Position numbers and translations under genes: made by a program. Shown piece after piece: positions 6,199 through 15,898 of a stretch of 16,514 nucleotides of DNA; position 1 is the first letter of the stretch; each line of letters opens with the position of its first letter. The stretch lies in NCBI GenBank assembly GCA_040220235.1, contig JAVJTO010000111.1, one strand, 5' to 3'. Origin of the DNA: Coleofasciculus sp. B1-GNL1-01 (GTDB lineage Bacteria; Cyanobacteriota; Cyanobacteriia; Cyanobacteriales; Coleofasciculaceae). The notes beneath the pieces were generated by a model. That model saw only the letters and a program-made list of their open reading frames with translations. It ran no database searches and had not been told where the DNA came from.

Positions 6199-7299
6199 AT
6201 GCCTCGACCTACTGTATACATCGCGATCACCAACCATGGCTTTGGTCATGCGGTTCGTGCGGCTTGTGCCGCCGCCGCCATCCAAAATCTCTGTCCAGAC
6301 ATCCTGCTAATTTTAGTAACCACAGCCCCACGTTGGTTATTGGACTCTTATATTCCCGGAGATTTTATTCATCGCCCCCGCGCCTTTGATATTGGCGTGA
6401 TTCAGTCGGATAGCTTGACCATGGATAAGGCGGCGACGTTGGCAAAACTTAAGCAAATTCGTGCCTCCGAAAATTCAATCATTGCCAGTGAAGTTAGTTT
6501 TATCCAAACCAATCGTGTCGGACTTGTACTCGGGGATATTCCTCCCTTAGCTGCCAAAATCGCTAAAACAGCAGGGATTCCCGGTTGGATGATTAGTAAC
6601 TTCGGTTGGGACTTTATTTACCGGGCGTGGGGTGGAGAATTTGTCGAGATTGCCGATTGGATTAGCAAATGTTACAGCGTCTGCGATCGCTTGTTTCGTC
6701 TCCCCTTACACGAACCGATGACAGCATTCCCCCAGATCACCGATGTAGGACTCACAGGGGGGACACCCAGTTATCCAGTCAGCCAGTTGCGGGAAAAGCT
6801 GGGTTTAACCTCACCCCCAGAGAAAACAGTATTACTCACCTTTGGTGGACTTAGTTTGCAGGCAATTCCCTACAGTACACTGTCCCAGTTTCCCGACTGG
6901 CAATTCATCACCTTTGATCCCAATGCCCCCGATTTACCCAATTTAGTGAAAATTTTGGGTCGAGACTACCGCCCTGTGGATATGATGCCCTTGTGTGGAC
7001 GAGTGGTATCTAAACCGGGATACAGTACCTTCGCCGAAGCACTACGTCTAGACATTCCCATCGTCTCCCTCACCCGCGAAGATTTTGCCGAATCTCCCTT
7101 CCTACTGGAAGGTATTCAAAATTATGCGTACCATCAAATTGTGACCCCTAAAGAATTTTTCCAAGGTCACTGGGAATTTTTACACCAATCTCTCAATCCT
7201 CCCAGACAATCCCAGCCTATCGCCAAAGATGGGGCTGACGCGATCGCGCAAGCTGTTGTCCATTATTTACAAACTCACTCATCCCGTTCTCGAACCTGA
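6199..7299 (+). CDS. GT-B fold glycosyltransferase-like protein (similar to the N-terminal domain of plant L-arabinokinase)
   Basis: ITNHGFGHAVR N-terminal motif, ISNFGWDFIY, LLTFGG, VVSKPGYSTFAEA sugar-nucleotide-binding region. Confidence 0.85.
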   Translation: MPRPTVYIAITNHGFGHAVRAACAAAAIQNLCPDILLILVTTAPRWLLDSYIPGDFIHRPRAFDIGVIQSDSLTMDKAATLAKLKQIRASENSIIASEVSFIQTNRVGLVLGDIPPLAAKIAKTAGIPGWMISNFGWDFIYRAWGGEFVEIADWISKCYSVCDRLFRLPLHEPMTAFPQITDVGLTGGTPSYPVSQLREKLGLTSPPEKTVLLTFGGLSLQAIPYSTLSQFPDWQFITFDPNAPDLPNLVKILGRDYRPVDMMPLCGRVVSKPGYSTFAEALRLDIPIVSLTREDFAESPFLLEGIQNYAYHQIVTPKEFFQGHWEFLHQSLNPPRQSQPIAKDGADAIAQAVVHYLQTHSSRSRT

Positions 7300-7300
7300 C

Positions 7301-8143
7301 ATGATAGCTACTGTGAATTCTCTGCTAGACAAAACCGCACCTACCTCGAAAACCGTAGATACACCGGAAACGCCCACAAAAGGCAATAGTTCAGATCTGA
7401 CTCAAACGTCAGACAAGCCAAAAACGCCTGACAAGCCAAAAACGCCAGAGACTACAGAGAAGACGAAGACGGCTAAAACGCCCAAGACAACGGAAACCGC
7501 CAAAAACCAGAAAGGTTCAGAACCCGCTGAAACCGTCAAACCTGCCCAACCCCCTAAAACCCCGGAGGTGACGAAGACTAAAACAGCCAAGACGACGAAA
7601 ACCACCAAGACGACTAAACCCTCAGACCAGAAAAAAGAGGGTAAAGAGAGTTCCACATCGTCTACCCTGGAATTAGCCGCTCATGATGTCCGCTTGGTCA
7701 TTGATCAGCAACGGGAGCAAAGCCAAACCTTAACCACGAAGTTAAATATCTTATTTGTTACCAACGGCGCTTTGTTCACTAGCTTAACCATATCACGGTT
7801 GTTATTCTTTCCCAACGGCTTTAGCCTTGCCGAACTTTTCGGATTTCTGGTAAATTTTACCCTGCTGATCAACGCCTTCTTACCGCGCCAGTTAGCGGTT
7901 AGCCCCAATTTGGGCGATAAGAAATTTTTGGAACGTTATCTCGTCCTGTCGCCAGATGAATATCAACTACGAATGATTGTTAACCTAGTAGAGACCTATA
8001 ATGCAAACAAGCAGCGATTGGAGGATGTCTCATCATCCTTACAATATTCTGCCTATGTGACCTGGGGGTTAGCCTTGGTTGTTACCTTGCATGTTGTAGG
8101 GATTTACTTCGTGCCGTTGATTGACCTGAGTAGTTTTGGCTAG
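7301..8143 (+). CDS. Hypothetical membrane protein: Lys/Thr/Pro-rich disordered N-terminus plus about 3 C-terminal TM helices (280 aa from ATG 7301)
   Basis: ATG 7301 follows the upstream TGA (7299) by 1 nt; KTP/KTT repeats; hydrophobic segments NILFVTNGALFTSLTI, LFGFLVNFTLLINAFL, YVTWGLALVVTLHVVGIYFV. Confidence 0.8.
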   Translation: MIATVNSLLDKTAPTSKTVDTPETPTKGNSSDLTQTSDKPKTPDKPKTPETTEKTKTAKTPKTTETAKNQKGSEPAETVKPAQPPKTPEVTKTKTAKTTKTTKTTKPSDQKKEGKESSTSSTLELAAHDVRLVIDQQREQSQTLTTKLNILFVTNGALFTSLTISRLLFFPNGFSLAELFGFLVNFTLLINAFLPRQLAVSPNLGDKKFLERYLVLSPDEYQLRMIVNLVETYNANKQRLEDVSSSLQYSAYVTWGLALVVTLHVVGIYFVPLIDLSSFG

Positions 8144-8154
8144 GTCTTGCGATT

Positions 8155-8769
8155 ATGACTTCTCAACACGTTCACAAAAACTCTTCTGGGAAACGGTTAA
8201 ATTTACCCGAACCCGACGCAGACAACATCACGGTGTTGACGCGCAACCTGCCCAACAAGCCAATTCTACCGTGGAATCGTTATGATTCTCCTTGGCGTGA
8301 TCCTCAGGTAGAACAGCTAGATGAATCGGGGGTATTAGATACCGATGAGGTAGCAGATACTGATGAGATAGACGGTTCTGAACAGGTTATGGCTGACACT
8401 CCAGAGGAATTGGAGGATGACATTGAGGATGACATTGAGGATGAGGCAGATGAGACAGAATTGGTAGAGGTGGTTACTGAGTGCGTCGAAACATCGGTAA
8501 CTAATGAATGTGATCAAGAATCCGATGAAACAGAAGCGTTAGAAACCTTAGAACAGGTAGAATCCGCCGAGATAGAATCTGAAGCACCCGACATTAACGT
8601 AGAAGACGAATATGATGAAGTAGAAAACGTAGATGAGGAAGACCCTTTAGTCGCCCACCTGTCAGAGAAATTAGGAATTGGCGATCGCGAAGAAGACGAT
8701 GAGGAGGATGACGAAGAATTCGCTGAAGACGAAGAAGACGAAGACCACGAACTCAAGCAACTGGGTTAG
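8155..8769 (+). CDS. Highly acidic (Asp/Glu-rich) hypothetical protein with short N-terminal motif
   Basis: 204-aa ORF in operon position; N-terminal LPEPD...PNKPILPWNRYDSPW followed by D/E-rich low-complexity tail. Confidence 0.8.
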   Translation: MTSQHVHKNSSGKRLNLPEPDADNITVLTRNLPNKPILPWNRYDSPWRDPQVEQLDESGVLDTDEVADTDEIDGSEQVMADTPEELEDDIEDDIEDEADETELVEVVTECVETSVTNECDQESDETEALETLEQVESAEIESEAPDINVEDEYDEVENVDEEDPLVAHLSEKLGIGDREEDDEEDDEEFAEDEEDEDHELKQLG

Positions 8770-9294: not shown

Positions 9295-9351
9295 AGTTTG
9301 AGGGTTAAAGTGAGTTGGAAGATGGATCAACAGAAACGGTAATCAAGCCTG

Positions 9352-11524
9352 ATGAGTTGGGAACAGGTAAAACGGGCAACGGTTGCGATCGCGTCGGTTG
9401 AGGATGGTAGTATCCGAGGGACGGGGTTTTTTGTCTCGTCTCACGGGTATTTGCTCACTTGCGCCCATGTCGTGGAAGCGGCTGGTGGTTGGGAAAAGAT
9501 ACGAGTGCAGGGAAAATCGGCATCCTTGGTCTATCTGGGGAATAGTCAGCAGGATGATTTTGCCGTCTTACAGATAGCTGGGTATCAGGGGAAAGGTGTT
9601 CCGTTGTCTTTCTCCGTCACACCCATGCACCGCTTCTTAAGTATCGGCTATGGGCGTCCAGATTTTCCAGAAGGCGCGTCCATTGATGGGGCGATTACCG
9701 ATATCAATCCCCAAGCCAATTTTAGTAATTTACCCATGCTGCGGCTGCGGGTAATGGCAGATGCTCAACGGGTGCAGGGAGGCTATAGTGGTTCCCCTGT
9801 CTTTGATGCGGAAACTCAGGCGGTGATTGGCTTAATTGCGGCGTTTGACCATAGCCAAGGGGCGCTAGCATTGCCATTAACCACCATCAGTAAAAAATGG
9901 TCAACCCTTCAAGACTTCTTAACCCCAACATCTCCTCATCCTATCGCCTCCCCTTCACCTCAAACTGCCAAAATCTTTATCAGTTACCGCAGCCGTGATC
10001 CCGATGTCAGTTTGGCACAGCAATTCTATGAAGCCTTGAAAGCGGCTGGACATCAACCGTTTATGGCGGGAGCGAGTATTCGCTTAGGGGAAAATTGGGC
10101 GGAACGGATTGATCAGGAATTAGAACACTGTGATTATTTCCTCCTCTTATTATCCTCACAATCAGCAACCAGTGAAATGGTCACAGAGGAGGTGCGACGG
10201 GCGAGGGAATTGCGGGATAGACGGGAGGAAAAGAAACCCATAATTCTGCCAATTCGGGTCAACTTTCCCATGGATTCCCCGTTAAATTATGACCTGCGCG
10301 GGTATTTACAGCGGATTCAGCAACGGGAATGGCATTCTCCTGACGATACGCCAGTGATTGTGCAGGAACTATTGGCGCTGATATCCCAGGAAGATGGCGG
10401 AGAACCTTGGCTGACTCCCCTGGCGGAGACTCCAGAACCTGCTGCACCTGCAATCGCCAGTCCCGATTCTCCCCCGTTACCTGTAGCGGAACCGGAATTA
10501 CAACGGGAACCGGGAGGGGCGGTTTCACTCAAATCTGGGTTATATGTAGAGCGTTTGCCGATAGAAACTGATTGTTATCAAGAAATTTTACAACCCGGTA
10601 GCTTGATTCGGATTAAAGCGCCTCGACAGATGGGAGAAAACCTCGTTAATGGCGCGAATTCTGCATCATGCTAAAGAACAAGGGTATCATGCCATTCCCT
10701 TAAGTTTACAACGGGCAGATAGTCAGCTTTTAGGCAATCTAGATCACTTTTTACGCTGGTTTTGTGAACAGGTGGGGCGGCGACTCAAGCGGTTAAATCA
10801 GTTGGATGACTATTGGATTGGGTATGGGAGCAAGGATAAATGTACAGCCTATTTTGAGGAATGTTTATTAGAAGAAATTGACCAGCCATTAGTTTTGGGG
10901 TTGGATGAAGTGGATCGGGTATTTCCCCATCGAGCTATTGCGGATGACTTTTTTGCCTTATTGCGCTCTTGGTATGAGGGGGCGAGGTATGGGGATTTTA
11001 GTAGTGAATTGTGGGAAAAGTTGCGGTTAGTGGTAGTCCATTCAACGGAGGTGTATGTGCCGTTGGATATTAATCAATCACCGTTTAATGTGGGCAAAAA
11101 TGTGGAGTTACCGGAATTCAATCCGGAGCAAATGTTAGATTTAGCGGGGCGGTATGGACTGAATTGGACAACAACTCAGGTCGAGGAATTAACGCAGTTA
11201 ATCGGGGGACATCCCTATTTAGTACAAAAAGCATTATATCATTTACGGCGTCAGGATGTGACGTTAGAAGAGTTAGCAGAAACAGCGGCGACAGAAGCGG
11301 GGATTTATAGTGACCATTTGCGGCGACATTGGTGGAATTTGAAGGAATATCCCAAATTAAAGGAAGCGTTTCGTCAGGTAGTGGTTAAAAATAAGTCAGT
11401 GGAATTAGATGCAGAGTTAGCGTTTAAATTAGACAGTATGGGGTTAGTGCAGTTGGAGGGGAATGAAGCAATTCCGCGCTGTGATTTGTATCGGAATTAT
11501 TTCCGCGATAATTTGGGGGATTAA
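9352..11524 (+). pseudogene. Trypsin-like serine protease + TIR + AAA_35 (STAND-like ATPase) protein, split by a +1 frameshift at ~10636 (723 aa if restored)
   Basis: Protease triad LTCAHVV / DDFAVL / GYSGSPV; TIR KIFISYRS...SEMVTEEV; AAA_35 PGGAV..SGLYVER, IKAPRQMG|KTSLM across the frameshift, Walker B LVLGLDEVD, QSPFNVG, GGHPYL. May be intact if the extra base is a sequencing error. Confidence 0.85.
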
Positions 11525-11527
11525 ATC

Positions 11528-11589
11528 CTTCGTACTTCACCCTCATCCCCTAACCCCAACTCCGGCCCCCCTCGTTCCCCCCTACGAAG
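11528..11589. repeat. C-rich intergenic repeat remnant with short inverted ends
   Basis: cttcgta ... ccctcatcccctaacccc ... tacgaag; resembles common cyanobacterial dispersed repeats. Confidence 0.4.
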
Positions 11590-11657
11590 AAACGATAAAA
11601 CTATGTAAGTTTTTAGGTAAAATATTAAAAGCACTTTTGACTTAGTTACTGCCACCT

Positions 11658-11870
11658 ATGCAAGTCACTCTTAACCTTGATGAAGCTCTGCTCAACGAAG
11701 CCTTGAAATTAACAAAACTCACTACCCAAGAAGAGTTACTGAACCTTGCTTTGCAAGAGCTAATACGATCTCGCCGCAAGAAAAATTTGCTTGATCTGGC
11801 AGGGCAAATTCAGTTCGTTCCTGATTTTGATTACAAGGCTCTGCGCGAAACTCGCTATGCTGCTGATTGA
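11658..11870 (+). CDS. vapB: Type II toxin-antitoxin antitoxin, VapB family (DUF2191-like)
   Basis: 70 aa, MQVTLNLDEALLNEA...LALQELIR...LLDLAGQI...FDYKALR; 3' end overlaps a PIN-type start. Confidence 0.85.
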   Translation: MQVTLNLDEALLNEALKLTKLTTQEELLNLALQELIRSRRKKNLLDLAGQIQFVPDFDYKALRETRYAAD

Positions 11871-11913
11871 TACATCTGTAAATCTATATGAATATAAATG
11901 TAGGGTGCGTTAG
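11857..11913 (+). pseudogene. vapC: VapC/PIN toxin stub (MLLIDTSV, then unrelated sequence and a stop inside the REP)
   Basis: ATG 11857 overlaps the vapB end; MLLIDTSVNLYEYKCRVR*; IDTSV is the canonical PIN first-Asp motif. Confidence 0.75.
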
Positions 11914-12082
11914 GCGCTTATTGAGTGAAAATTGTGAGAATTAAATCATTCAGCGCCGTAACGCACCAATTCTGGGAAAGCATCAAGGGAAATTGTTAGG
12001 ATAAAATAATTTAACGCCAGAATGCACCAATTCTGGGAGATAATAAAGGGCGGTGCGTTACGCTACGCTAACGCACCCTACA
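11897..12082. repeat. ~185-bp GTAG-type REP/REPIN-like element, copy 1
   Basis: Ends gtagggtgcgttag ... ctaacgcaccctac; internal palindrome ggtgcgttacgctacgctaacgcacc; gcaccaattctggga twice; highly similar to 12947-13132. Confidence 0.9.
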
Positions 12083-12103
12083 AACCAAAAAGACTTGGAA
12101 TGA

Positions 12104-12748
12104 ATGATGAATCCATCAGTGCAAACAATTGCGGCTCAAGACATCACCTTACATCAACTGAGTGAAACCTTTGGGTTAGTACGAACTGACGAAGCCCAGT
12201 TTTTTCCAGAATGGCAGGACAATTTACCCGAACTGAGTCCAGTAGAACAGCAATGGCTGGATCAGGTTAAGGATGATTATCTCCATTTGTCTCAGTATCC
12301 CATGTTAGAACCCATTGTTAAAATGGTGGTGCTATCCCCCTTATTGAGTGTGGCTGGGTTTTATCGTTCACCATTTTATTTAGCGGCTGAACATGAGGTG
12401 AGAATTACCTCCCAGGATAACGGGACAATTGTACACGGAAAAATTGATATTTTAATTTGTCAACCCCAGTTTTGGATTACGGTAATTGAGGCAAAACGAG
12501 CAGAATATTCCTTAAAGGTGGGTATTCCTCAAGCCTTGGCTTATATGATGGCACATCCTCAACCGGAAAAGCCAGCCTTTGGATTAGTCACGAATGGGAC
12601 AGAGTTTATCTTTATTAAATTGAGTCAACAACCGACATCGCGATATAGTTTTTCTAATGAGTTTTCGGTATTGAATCAGGGAAATGATTTATACAGAGTA
12701 GCTGGCATTTTGAAACAATTAGGTCGAATAGCACAGTCCTTAAGTTAG
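12104..12748 (+). CDS. HsdR N-terminal-like PD-(D/E)XK restriction-endonuclease-fold protein (stand-alone)
   Basis: GKIDIL...VIEAKR...GIPQALAYM...FGLVTNGTEF motifs; no helicase, HsdM or HsdS in the window. Confidence 0.85.
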   Translation: MMNPSVQTIAAQDITLHQLSETFGLVRTDEAQFFPEWQDNLPELSPVEQQWLDQVKDDYLHLSQYPMLEPIVKMVVLSPLLSVAGFYRSPFYLAAEHEVRITSQDNGTIVHGKIDILICQPQFWITVIEAKRAEYSLKVGIPQALAYMMAHPQPEKPAFGLVTNGTEFIFIKLSQQPTSRYSFSNEFSVLNQGNDLYRVAGILKQLGRIAQSLS

Positions 12749-12946
12749 TTTGTAGTTGCGCTTTAGCGCCCTAATCTGGCATCATTGACTACAAACATTA
12801 AATCAGAAATATAATAAACGCGATCGCCTTCATTTTACGAAACCATAAACATGGGGTAGCGGGCGTAGTAAAAGGGCGCACGTCAGAAGGGCGCACGTCG
12901 GTGCGCCCCTACAGAAATGGAATGTAGGAATGTAGGGTGCGTTAGG
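12748..12946. repeat. Cluster of small REP-like palindromes and partial duplications
   Basis: gtttgtagt...actacaaac (12748-12796); HIP1 at 12820; aagggcgcacgtc twice plus gtgcgcccctac (12872-12912); stuttered ggaatgta / ggaatgtagggtgcgtta. Confidence 0.7.
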
Positions 12947-13132
12947 AATGTAGGGTGCGTTGGGCGCTGATTTAGTATCAATCGTGAGGATTAAATGAGT
13001 TAGCGCCGTAACGCACCAATTCTGGGAAAGCATCAAGGTAAATTGTTAGGATAAAATAATTTAACGCCAGAATGCACCAATTCTGGGAGACAATAAAGGT
13101 GGTGCGTTACGCTACGCTAACGACACCCTACA
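12947..13132. repeat. ~185-bp GTAG-type REP/REPIN-like element, copy 2 (direct repeat of 11897-12082)
   Basis: Shares agcgccgtaacgcaccaattctgggaaagcatcaagg.aaattgttaggataaaataatttaacgccagaatgcaccaattctgggaga with copy 1. Confidence 0.9.
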
Positions 13133-13167
13133 GGTACAAGATACACACCGTTTCGGGGGATTTGAGG

Positions 13168-15003
13168 ATGAGTACCGCATCCCATCCAGACTACAGCTAT
13201 CAAGTCGGCGGGAGTCTTAAACAGGATGATCCCACCTATGTGGTGCGCCAAGCGGATCAGGATTTCTATGAAGCCTTAAAAGCAGGCGAATTCTGCTATG
13301 TTCTCAATTCCCGCCAAATGGGTAAATCTAGCTTGCGGGTGCAAACCATGCGGCGATTGCAAAACGAGGGAGTTGCTTGTGGTGTGATTGATATTACCGC
13401 CATTGGAAGTCACAATATTGCCCCATCTGAATGGTATCTGGGTTTAATTCGCCGACTGGCGCGGAGTTTGGGAATTAAAGTTAAGGTGATCAAATGGTGG
13501 AATGAACGGGAGGGATTGTCCCCGACACAGCGTTTGGGTGAGTTTATCGAGACGGTATTACTAGCCGAGATTTCCCAACCAATTGTTATTTTTATTGATG
13601 AAATCGATAGTATTCTCAAGTTAGACCTAAAAGACGATTTTTTTGCCCTGATTCGCGCTTGTTATAACGAACGGGCAGACAATTCAGACTATCAACGTCT
13701 GACATTTGCCTTGTTGGGAGTGGCGACACCTTCAGATTTAATTCAGGATAAAACTCGCACGCCGTTTAATATTGGTAGGGCGATTGAATTGCGGGGGTTT
13801 GGTTTATCGGAAGTATCGCCCTTAGCGCCGGGATTGGCGGGTAAGGCGGAGAATCCGCAAACGGTTCTCAGGGAGATCATAAACTGGACAGGGGGACAAC
13901 CCTTTCTGACGCAAAAGTTATGTCAGTTGGTGCTGACTTCTCCCTTTGCCATTGCGTCTGGTCGTGAGGCAGAATTATTAATCGAAAAGTTAGTGCGATC
14001 GCGTATACTGGAAAACTGGGAAGCCCAGGATGAGCCAGAACATCTCCGGACTATCCGCGATCGCGTTTTAAGCAATGAGCAACGGGCAGGGTATTTACTG
14101 GAACTCTATCGGCAGATTTGGCAGGATAGGGAAGTCGCCGCCACAAATAGTGATGATGAAGCCCGATTAAAGCTGGCGGGGTTGGTGGTGAAGCAGAGAG
14201 GAAGTTTAAGGGCTTACAATCCTATTTATCGCGAAGTCTTTAACCAAAATTGGATTGACCAAGAATTAAAGAATCTACGCCCCTACTCTGAGACATTTAG
14301 AAGGTGGGTAGCCTCTGGGTATCAGGATGATTTTCTGTTGCAGGGTAAGGCGTTGCACGAGGCGCAAGCTTGGGCAAAGGGGAAAAATTTAAGTTATTTG
14401 GATCAGCAGTTTCTTGCTGCTGGTGAAAAGAAGGCAATTGAACAGCAAATTGCGGTAGCGGAAAAGGAAGCGGAATTAGAACGGGAACGGAAAGATAGAG
14501 AAGCCGCAGAACAAAGAAACCTGGCTCTAGCTGAGGCGAATCGCAAAGCCAAAAGACGGATTAGTATTGGTGGAGTAGTGCTAATCGTTGCCGTGTTTGG
14601 GGCGGTAATTTCCGGGGTACTTGCCGGAAATAAAGTTATTGAAGCCAATTCCAAAGTTGATAAGGCAAACTCTCAGGTAGCCGAAGCCAACACCAAGGTT
14701 GAGCAGGCAAACTCTCAGGTAGCCGAAGCGAACCAAAGAGCGACAGCAGCCGAGAAACGAGAAGAACAAGCGATAGAAAATGAGAAACTCATGCAGACAA
14801 GTGCTGAAGAGGCAGCCCAGAAAGTCAAAGCTTCACAGAAAGCTTTAGCGGTAGCGAACGATAAACTGGAAAATTCCCGTCAACAGTCCCAACAATTAGC
14901 GCGACAAGCGCAACAAGCCGCTCAAGAAACTCGACAGGCTCAAGCCAAGCTGGGGGAAGCTCAGGAAAGAGTGAAAAAAGCCGAACAAAATGTTCAACAG
15001 TAG
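13168..15003 (+). CDS. AAA_35 STAND-like ATPase with TM helix and coiled-coil stalk (N-terminal part of a probable 887-codon gene interrupted by TAG)
   Basis: Start [17 protein letters not shown] at 13168 (upstream ORF extension lies in the REP); Walker [11 protein letters not shown], Walker [28 protein letters not shown] 14560-14628; Q/A/E/K coiled coil. Confidence 0.9.
14641..14733 (+). repeat. 42-bp (two-heptad) in-frame tandem repeat encoding the coiled coil
   Basis: [14 protein letters not shown] / [14 protein letters not shown] / EAN; aggcaaactctcaggtagccgaagc is identical in both units. Confidence 0.85.
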
Positions 15004-15831
15004 TATCAGGAATTGGATCAGCAAGAAAAAGCGCAAGACTATTGGAGTAAAGCTGAACAAGCAATTAAAGAAAGTCAGGAGTTATTACCGTCAAAGATTA
15101 CTGGAGAGACGCCTGAACAATGGTCAATTCGTGTCCATGTCCAGCGAGTGCGGGGCAGTTGGTATCGGGAAAAGGGAGAAACGCCAAAGGCAATAGAGGC
15201 GTATCGGCAAGCCTTTACTCGGCTGGAGGCGGCTTGGAAAAAACTGCCAAATATTGATATAGACACGGAGATTCCTATTCCGCAGTATCTGCCTCAAAAA
15301 CAACCGATTCTCTCGGCAAATGCCATTGAGAACTTACATCGTGAGTTTATGGCATTGCTGGCAGAAACAGGTGAAGATGATTCCCGGATCAAAGAATCGC
15401 TCAAACGTCACCTACTAGCAGAACTAAACTTTTTGATGGAATCAGGCAACTGGAAAGATGCTGATAGAAAAACTTATGATTTAATTGCTTTTGCTGGTAG
15501 TACCGAAACAGGTTTTGAGATAGAGAATATTTCCTGTCGAGACTTGAGTAGTATCGATAGGCTTTGGGTAGAACGCTCAGATGGGACGTTTGGTTTCAGT
15601 GTGCAAAAGATTATTTTGGATGAATTGGCCTCCCAGCGCGGTCATTATGATAATGATGTAATCTTGTGGGAAGGATTTTATGAGAAGATAGGATGGAAAG
15701 AAGGAGAGAAGTGGCTGGATGGGAAAGGTATTTTTAATCCGGCAGCAGCAAAAAGAGGACACCTCCCATATTTGGGTTATTCATGGTTGCAAAAACAACT
15801 CCTCTCTCTCACTGCGACTTGTAGACTTTAA
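15004..15831 (+). CDS. TPR-like + GUN4-domain region, in frame with the upstream AAA_35 gene (continuation past TAG, or TTG restart at 15013)
   Basis: GUN4 motifs NWKDADRKT, ISCRDLSSIDRLWVERSDGTFGFSVQK, IGWK, GHLP; TPR-like RGSWYREKGETPKAIEAYRQA. Confidence 0.8.
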   Translation, partial: YQELDQQEKAQDYWSKAEQAIKESQELLPSKITGETPEQWSIRVHVQRVRGSWYREKGETPKAIEAYRQAFTRLEAAWKKLPNIDIDTEIPIPQYLPQKQPILSANAIENLHREFMALLAETGEDDSRIKESLKRHLLAELNFLMESGNWKDADRKTYDLIAFAGSTETGFEIENISCRDLSSIDRLWVERSDGTFGFSVQKIILDELASQRGHYDNDVILWEGFYEKIGWKEGEKWLDGKGIFNPAAAKRGHLPYLGYSWLQKQLLSLTATCRL

Positions 15832-15898
15832 CATACAAGCGCTCCAGCCTTCTGTAAAAATTCCTTAACAAACTACATTTCTACGAATTCATAGTTAG

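Follow-up and report, generated by a model that had tools for sequence, protein, structure and literature searches.

In this study we analysed a 16,514-nucleotide stretch of DNA from the cyanobacterium Coleofasciculus sp. B1-GNL1-01 (assembly GCA_040220235.1, contig JAVJTO010000111.1), referred to here as the window, which is one entire contig of an 8.66-Mb draft genome in 172 contigs. It carries two genes for AAA_35-family ATPases: gene A, encoding a trypsin-like protease, a TIR domain and the ATPase, and gene B, encoding the ATPase, one transmembrane (TM) helix, a stalk, a helical domain and a GUN4-like domain. The reading that we favour, and to which we give about an even chance, is that the locus is a decayed three-gene module with B as receptor, A as executor engaged through a mixed ATPase oligomer, and the product of a third gene, Trypco1/Pepco, as pore-forming substrate, so that a ligand outside would lead to cell death. 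The copy in the window is itself a non-functional pseudogene locus, with Pepco deleted, A frameshifted and B truncated ahead of its sensor, and because all three genes carry lesions the system cannot operate as drawn in this genome. Below, A type denotes genes of the family with the ATPase last and B type those with the ATPase first; G000 is the window's genome, G001-G007 include the same-genus copies, and G062 belongs to another genus (locus L091). Domain calls are from Pfam.

The candidate three-gene module and its lesions

A first-pass annotation, made from the letters alone, had named Trypsin_2, TIR_2, AAA_35 (in both genes) and GUN4, and the Pfam scan finds all of them (Table 1); the His, Asp and Ser triad motifs of the protease, the Glu of VTEEV and the single hydrophobic helix after KAKRR are also present as it had described. 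In an alignment of 14 trypsin-TIR-A loci the triad is kept in 13 and the TIR Glu (SEMVTxEV) in all 14; judged by the motif, this Glu occupies the usual catalytic position, and we regard it as a putative catalytic residue. The ratio of nonsynonymous to synonymous differences (pN/pS) is 0.06-0.15 in the protease, TIR and ATPases of relatives, which together with this conservation indicates purifying selection on the catalytic residues there.

The lesions in the window copy are distinct in kind. One surplus base at about 10634-10636 interrupts the Walker A codons of gene A and leaves two open frames, 9352-10674 and 10649-11524, which would give a 440-amino-acid (aa) protease-TIR protein and a 291-aa ATPase piece that lacks Walker A. 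The base is missing from all six same-genus orthologues, and contigs from four of four public runs omit one base at 10636. Programmed frameshifting is ruled out, since the surplus base is private to the window copy. The stop of gene B at 15001-15003 is the junction of a 354-nucleotide (nt) deletion relative to two orthologues, G003 and G006, by which 118 aa of the stalk and helical domain are removed; a point-mutation stop or stop read-through is therefore also ruled out. In addition, 1.6 kb of inserted genes (11525-13167) separates A from B. Thus, of the gene pair that had been annotated, the order A then B and its co-inheritance in relatives stand, but in the window the two genes are not adjacent and neither is whole.

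The first-pass annotation had recognised the A and B genes of the module and missed the third, of which the last 13 codons remain ahead of gene A. Like the window, G003 retains just these codons, and G002, G004, G006 and G007 have a Trypco1 gene of 111-113 aa immediately ahead of A; whole orthologous genes match PF19493 with E-values of 1.6e-16 and 2.8e-17. Trypco1 lies directly upstream of A in nine of the 14 trypsin-TIR-A loci (one weak match, 25% identity), and G062 has an intact, insert-free set of Trypco1, trypsin-TIR-A and, five bases on, a B gene with TM, helical and GUN4 parts. Pepco proteins of such modules have a conserved Ile ahead of the cleavage site and a tail that can be removed; the last strand of Trypco1 has an invariant Val102, Val, Ile or Leu at 104 and then a tail of 7-20 aa, which may or may not correspond to these. 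The name Trypco1 is from Kaur et al. (PMC7159879); in a preprint of 2025, Trypco1 and Pepco are treated as one and the same (10.1101/2025.11.14.688446). According to that preprint, Streptomyces Pepco is a beta-barrel that is cut by the trypsin domain of a neighbouring STAND protein and is then lethal, and transmembrane STAND ATPases are named among Pepco partners. Pepco is likely the substrate of the gene A protease.

These parts suggest the following sequence of events. GUN4 would lie outside the cytoplasm, in the periplasm or the thylakoid lumen, where a ligand would bind its variable loops and B would be clustered through the stalk; the B ATPase would then nucleate a ring with the A ATPase, both having intact Walker motifs. 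Clustering would activate the A protease, which would clip the Pepco tail, and would align the TIR domains for NAD+ cleavage or scaffolding, so that the cell would die and the filament or mat be spared. Pointing toward defence at this locus are the Pepco-protease pair, the TIR domain, inserted toxin-antitoxin and nuclease genes, two sites, patchy presence and varied lesions.

One may ask whether the breaks arose in assembly and the organism itself has an unbroken system, since the genome is a draft of 172 contigs in which lesions may be errors, and no public run contains the strain (best share 0.28). We consider this very unlikely. There are four separate losses (Pepco, the frameshift, vapC and the 354-nt deletion), the Pepco deletion is common to G003, the surplus base is not a homopolymer extension, and the frameshift of a relative is found again in two further metagenome contigs.

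The predicted side of the GUN4-like domain has been approached through homologues. Exactly one TM helix, ahead of GUN4, is present in 31 of 32 GUN4-bearing B homologues, in which basic residues are richer on the ATPase side and the stalk varies from 4 to 190 aa. B paralogues bear CHASE2 (four genes) or Peripla_BP_6 (one) after or flanking the corresponding TM. This genomic pattern supports the earlier proposal that the region past the TM is an extracytoplasmic sensor, with the side predicted; GUN4 is likely outside the cytoplasm, periplasm and thylakoid lumen being indistinguishable from the sequence. The TPR-like unit of the first annotation stands as a helical bundle in a structure model, but hardly as a TPR, since the TPR match scores 18.6 of the 27 bits of the Pfam cut-off and the TPR-like structural matches are weak (E at least 0.07).

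Pairing of A-type and B-type genes

The window's genome holds 21 A-type and 17 B-type genes, and a co-oriented B follows nine of the 21 A. For the class we surveyed 60 genomes, taken in listing order out of an even sample, and counted a pair as adjacent when a co-oriented B lay within 3.5 kb downstream of A; related genomes are non-independent and contig breaks push the adjacency count down. Both types occur in 34 genomes, B only in three, neither in 23 and A only in none. The 95 A and 96 B matches have a count correlation of 0.93 over the 37 carriers, and B is downstream of 61 of the 95 A (43 within 300 nt) and upstream of one. Among 32 TIR-A loci, 12 taken from one set of matches and 20 chosen from 84 matches in another, B is downstream in 22 and on the opposite strand in two, four have no B and four are at a contig break. 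Five small genomes with unlinked copies still have equal numbers, 1:1 or 2:2. The A and B ATPase trees agree, with a Mantel r of 0.65 over 34 pairs (five of 39 were excluded as near-duplicate or truncated) and of 0.82 over nine paralogous pairs, in which G003 stands in for the window copy. Co-duplication alone would give such congruence, so these trees show shared inheritance and not binding.

A different explanation of these counts is that A and B are co-inherited and form no complex, each acting as a separate ring, with a second messenger or some cue from the cytoplasm as the trigger of A. Both types have Walker A and B, so each could act alone: Walker A (xPRQMGKT-like) is present in 61 of 61 A-type domains and Walker B (hhhhD(E/D)xD-like) in 57, and the Walker motifs are present in 52 of 54 B-type domains. 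The 34 A genes with no B within 3.5 kb, together with the genes lying between the pair here, also fit separate action. However, A lacks a sensor-like repeat and B lacks an effector, no sampled genome has A without B, the counts match even where the genes are unlinked, and the order is nearly always A then B. We find separate rings unlikely.

Two further arrangements of the pair were seen. In small genomes (L126-L129, from G081, G105, G263 and G314) one long TIR-AAA_35 gene stands amid ordinary genes, together with one unlinked B of about 1,200 aa; the long A gene is a kinase-TIR gene in the one scanned, and the pair is conserved and apparently non-mobile. At G112:C25:19901-33871 one A is followed by four tandem B genes.

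The GUN4-like domain and its variable tip

GUN4 structures take fold ranks 1-10 for the B domain (E 0.001-0.009), which shares with GUN4 orthologues of the sll0558 type (PMC10156173) the fold, but is of a paralogue type that lacks LxNxLR, described there as the bilin motif. This motif is missing from the window copy and from 32 of 32 homologues; within this genome it is present only in C140, a separate gene that is the true GUN4 orthologue. The earlier idea of a tetrapyrrole-sensing GUN4 finds no support, given this absence and the hypervariability of the very loop concerned. In a comparison of six alleles the ATPase shows an identity of 0.97 and two GUN4 core blocks 0.88-0.91, and the values for the loops and the tip are 0.57, 0.43 and 0.13. 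The 31-nt tip segment of the window, at the place of the bilin-binding loop of true GUN4, has zero cover at 15770-15795 in four of four runs, and two run contigs span it with 84 and 116 different letters. The last GUN4 helix is modelled confidently and the tip is not.

The tips vary among alleles in both length and reading frame, and a constant end block closes them in any frame. Its TGY codons follow one another at a spacing of 7 nt, with drift of the third one in the window copy. Whichever frame is read, the product ends in a short helix and, in most cases, Cys-x-Leu/Ile before the stop; Cys-x-x-stop in all frames occurred in none of 200,000 random windows. Orthologues read the block in differing frames, and among 31 homologues the three endings are used 12, 8 and 7 times, four matching none. 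We did not find a three-frame GUN4 end described in the literature searched, and a metagenome pattern scan returned three loci, two of one known allele and one unrelated. The segment does not look like the target of a diversity-generating retroelement (DGR), which would have a template repeat homologous to the variable region and would vary by substitution at constant length: no template repeat was found in the draft genomes searched, which may miss one, and the alleles differ in length and frame. The kinase-GUN4 paralogues C170 and C158 of this genome have identical DNA that starts in the end block and runs on downstream of the gene, and they read it in two frames; a relative, L082, uses the third.

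It is tempting to see here an antibody-like surface receptor of mat-forming cyanobacteria, in which the GUN4 loop is rewritten by a non-DGR process, any length being tolerated by the three-frame end, and in which a two-STAND hetero-oligomer would pass the signal to the protease and the Pepco pore for recognition of phage, predator or non-self; we offer this as a tentative proposal. An alternative is that the C-terminus tolerates change, so that the tips differ neutrally or through mutational noise, the domain being structural or porphyrin-binding. Consistent with noise, pS of the tip climbs with pN, and a pN/pS of 0.7-1.1, at or below about one, gives no sign of positive selection; the tips of one genus, g33, are stable at 87-100% DNA identity; and no donor or template copy of the segment was found elsewhere in the window's genome, nor a second copy of the G003 segment in five genomes searched, although drafts may miss one. 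Loss of the bilin Asn in Chlamydomonas GUN4 did not abolish porphyrin binding (PMC10156173). Against noise, the variation is restricted to loops between conserved blocks, and the all-frame closing block, with all three frames in use, is not what random windows yield. A neutral tip is on these grounds rather doubtful.

The GUN4 part of an orthologue (L016, corresponding to window 15391-15780) also matches the C-terminal half of the PADLOC model PD-T4-6, positions 311-427, with an E-value of 2e-17. The match may be due simply to kinase-GUN4 proteins among the sequences aligned for that model, and is not counted as evidence for defence.

Exchange of ends, turnover and the case for plain signalling

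Comparison of gene B with its relatives suggests that its parts move separately. With the paralogue C12 it is 62% identical in the ATPase and 81% in the helical domain, and with the G004 orthologue 95% in the ATPase and 23% in the stalk, CHAT replacing GUN4. From these identities, the ATPase of B stays with its partner A and the ectodomain is what changes place; the ATPase pair appears as the constant part, with both ends exchangeable. The G004 receptor (L018:6542-10108) has its CHAT domain past the TM, seemingly without the catalytic His and Cys at the usual motif positions; this fits a binding role, and a pseudo-caspase sensor is possible. In C12 (G000; L040:2026-5607) GUN4 runs via short repeats into an LRR domain; this receptor is partnered by a helix-turn-helix (HTH)-ATPase, and a GAF-bearing B gene is divergent from it.

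The state of the locus varies within the genus. Differing lesions are found in five of the seven same-genus copies (G000, G001, G002, G006 and G007), all three genes are kept only in G004, and G003 keeps A and B. The locus is missing from two of nine genus genomes and occupies two different chromosomal sites. Costly immune genes are expected to undergo birth-and-death turnover, and the low pN/pS combined with varied lesions fits that pattern.

A number of observations weigh against a death module and leave plain signalling as a live rival, in which the pair is a general, two-component-like transmembrane signalling device, the protease and TIR output is regulatory and non-lethal, and Pepco is an accessory gained and lost. 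With the helical-GUN4 part of B as query we fetched 15 loci, and of the 11 with A upstream, eight have an HTH-type A, one trypsin-TIR, one TIR and one another type. Most GUN4 receptors thus pair with an HTH-ATPase, and the specific tie between GUN4 and the protease-TIR gene suggested by the first-pass annotation finds no support, one orthologue even having CHAT in place of GUN4. The other 20 A genes of this genome bear TIR in two cases and otherwise HTH, kinase or GGDEF, or have an N-terminus in which no domain was recognised, and its B genes bear WD40 (six), CHASE2 (four), GAF (two), a periplasmic-binding protein (PBP) domain (one), GUN4-LRR (one) or unknown parts (two); the domains joined in the majority of its pairs are thus non-lethal ones. 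The TIR-A module also occurs with kinase or cyclase domains and stands alone amid ordinary genes in small genomes, some of which keep one A and one B. G003 has A and B whole without Pepco, and in G003 and the window lineage the loss of Pepco came before any decay of A and B. Four kinase-GUN4 genes of the window's genome have no TM, so GUN4 need not be outside. Finally, PADLOC 2.0 and NCBIfam 20 gave no whole-protein system match to the pair; the matches were to parts of domains only, and those from NCBIfam were all below cut-off.

On the other side, the Pepco-protease pairs that have been tested are death modules; this pair is broken in most same-genus copies, whereas the other eight tandem pairs of the genome are open frames; and the locus is absent from some genus genomes and sits at two sites. 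We hold plain signalling at this locus to be a real possibility, though not a probable one. The family as a whole probably serves as a transmembrane switch of general use, and this locus would be one version of it that is wired to cell death. As a whole, the first-pass observation is borne out for its domains and not for intact, adjacent genes, and its interpretation is supported in part.

ATPase family and relation to known systems

The first-pass annotation had placed both genes in one ATPase family. Both are indeed AAA_35, but with 24% identity they form two distinct subfamilies. A GxP motif (GGHP or GGQP) is invariant in the ATPases. The model of the B ATPase, made from an orthologue (predicted local distance difference test score 86), has a five-strand core, a helical bundle and a beta-hairpin wing; its nearest structures are the archaeal SSO1545 and Paby2304, followed by ORC/Cdc6, Avs4 and the NLRs NRC and CED-4. 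A search of solved-structure sequences with either ATPase profile gave no matches. AP-ATPases and NACHT proteins have the sensor-1 motif hhhhT[TS]R; strand 4 here ends in VVVHSTE (A) and ALLGVATP (B), and since this is not that motif the ATPases are not AP-ATPase or NACHT. Within the STAND NTPases, the MNS clade includes the Npun2340/2341 family, reportedly described by Leipe et al. in 2004 and represented by reference proteins of Nostoc punctiforme. By their motifs and the modelled fold the A and B ATPases are MNS-like STAND proteins, and with these fold neighbours they may belong to this family.

Sensor/helper NLR pairs and Toll-like receptors share with this pair a split between sensor and executor, a TIR output and a variable sensor on a conserved ATPase. 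The likeness to these plant and animal proteins is an analogy only, as the ATPase clade is distinct and NLRs are not single-pass membrane receptors. Among bacterial systems, the Npun2340/2341 family is named in PMC8195603, in passages that mention neither the Pepco gene nor the hypervariable GUN4 ectodomain found here. The family reportedly also consists of two related cyanobacterial STAND-like ATPases in tandem, and we found no functional test of it in the literature searched. The SsPepco-SsAvs4 system likewise has a Pepco gene immediately ahead of a gene that joins a trypsin-like protease to a STAND ATPase (10.1101/2025.11.14.688446), but Avs4 is described there as a single cytoplasmic protein whose TPRs sense phage portal. 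In the present pair one ATPase carries the sensor, beyond a TM helix, and the other carries the effector, with a TIR domain in addition. STAND-FGS proteins of multicellular bacteria, with DGR-varied C-type lectin sensors, are alike in joining an effector (TIR, trypsin or caspase), a STAND ATPase and a variable C-terminal sensor (PMC8195603; PMC10907252; PMC7517822), some sensors being predicted periplasmic (PMC8195603; PMC10907252); they are unlike the present pair in that here the sensor has a GUN4 fold, varies by length changes and frame switches with no template found, and would be separated from the executor by the membrane. Two STANDs of the nSTAND2 two-gene operon are proposed to form a toroidal hetero-multimer (PMC8195603), as we propose for A and B, but one of those is inactive, whereas here both keep Walker A and B and one is membrane-anchored. 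The MNS clade is included in the STAND tree of PMC12803255, whose tables may already cover these clades, and Fig. 5A of preprint 10.1101/2025.11.14.688446 may show a similar locus. In the ESM Atlas, AAA_35-GUN4 proteins form clusters of 64 and 72 members, most of them from cyanobacteria.

Each part is thus known, be it the pair of MNS-type STANDs, the Pepco-protease module for cell death or the variable sensor; the differences are the GUN4 scaffold, the membrane predicted between sensor and executor, and the lack of any DGR template in the genomes searched. We found no experimental study of the A/B pair in a literature search from which subscription journals were largely absent. Bacterial NLR-like proteins tested so far are cytoplasmic single chains, unlike this family, which splits sensor and executor over two ATPases with the sensor membrane-anchored and is carried by 34 of the 60 sampled cyanobacterial genomes, with up to about 20 pairs per genome. 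In the Pepco-bearing version, pore-dependent death would be a simple read-out for STAND-pair signalling across a membrane, and the hypervariable GUN4 ends, so far unexplained, are brought into relation with what may be a role in immunity or in telling self from non-self. The copy in the window is dead, and the loci fit for testing are those in G062 and G004.

Features of the window and neighbouring genes

Table 1. Features of the A/B locus, in coordinates of the window
Feature	Position	Strand	Basis or remark
Trypco1/Pepco 3' remnant, last 13 codons to stop	9304..9342	+	translation resembles the C-terminus of the orthologous Trypco1
Trypsin-like protease domain, gene A	9352..9936	+	Trypsin_2, residues 23-161, E 7.6e-17
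TIR domain with Glu of VTEEV (putative catalytic), gene A	9961..10386	+	TIR_2, residues 208-327, E 8.6e-21
A-type AAA_35 ATPase, gene A	10504..11524	+	split match, profile 2-43 and 48-330
vapB antitoxin	11658..11870	+	PF09957, E 7.8e-16
153-nt direct repeat, copy 1	11897..12049	+	flanks nuclease-like gene; copy 2 at 12947-13099, 92%
HSDR_N / PD-(D/E)xK-like gene between A and B	12104..12748	+	PF04313, E 5.1e-6; PADLOC PD_DExK, 2.4e-7
B-type AAA_35 ATPase (P-loop, helical bundle with GxP, winged helix), gene B	13168..14232	+	AAA_35, E 1.4e-35
Single predicted TM helix after KAKRR, gene B	14566..14622	+	residues 467-485, mean Kyte-Doolittle value 2.65
Coiled-coil-like stalk, gene B	14623..15003	+	ends at stop made by the 354-nt deletion junction
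Rest of helical (TPR-like) domain, gene B, cut off by stop	15004..15390	+	
GUN4-like domain, gene B	15391..15831	+	PF05419, E 4.9e-22; without LxNxLR bilin motif
Allele-private segment at place of true GUN4 bilin-binding loop	15769..15799	+	
Constant end block, short helix-Cys-x-Leu/Ile-stop in all three frames	15799..15838	+	

Within the insert between A and B, vapC overlaps vapB and is cut after eight codons; relatives have a whole PIN gene. The HSDR_N-type insert is present in G002, G004 and G007 and absent from G003 and G006. A scan for promoters and terminators between A and B stayed at chance level (three found, 4.1 expected). Contigs from RNA runs span both genes of relatives, though transcription is not demonstrable from contigs.

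HSDR_N-type genes also lie between or directly after A and B in other families (L112, with two in tandem, and L114), and at L122:8338-8673 a Trypco-like gene comes after, not before, a TIR-A/B pair whose A has no trypsin match. Elsewhere in the window, positions 412-1065 hold a broken-up transposase, its first piece a DDE_Tnp_1_assoc match. Two proteins without a Pfam match, one a membrane protein rich in Thr, Lys and Pro and the other very acidic and 204 aa long, are encoded at 7229-8769 and are syntenic in the genus. At the contig end (16145-16514) an AbrB/MazE-type antitoxin gene runs into a 141-nt element that has five copies in the genome.

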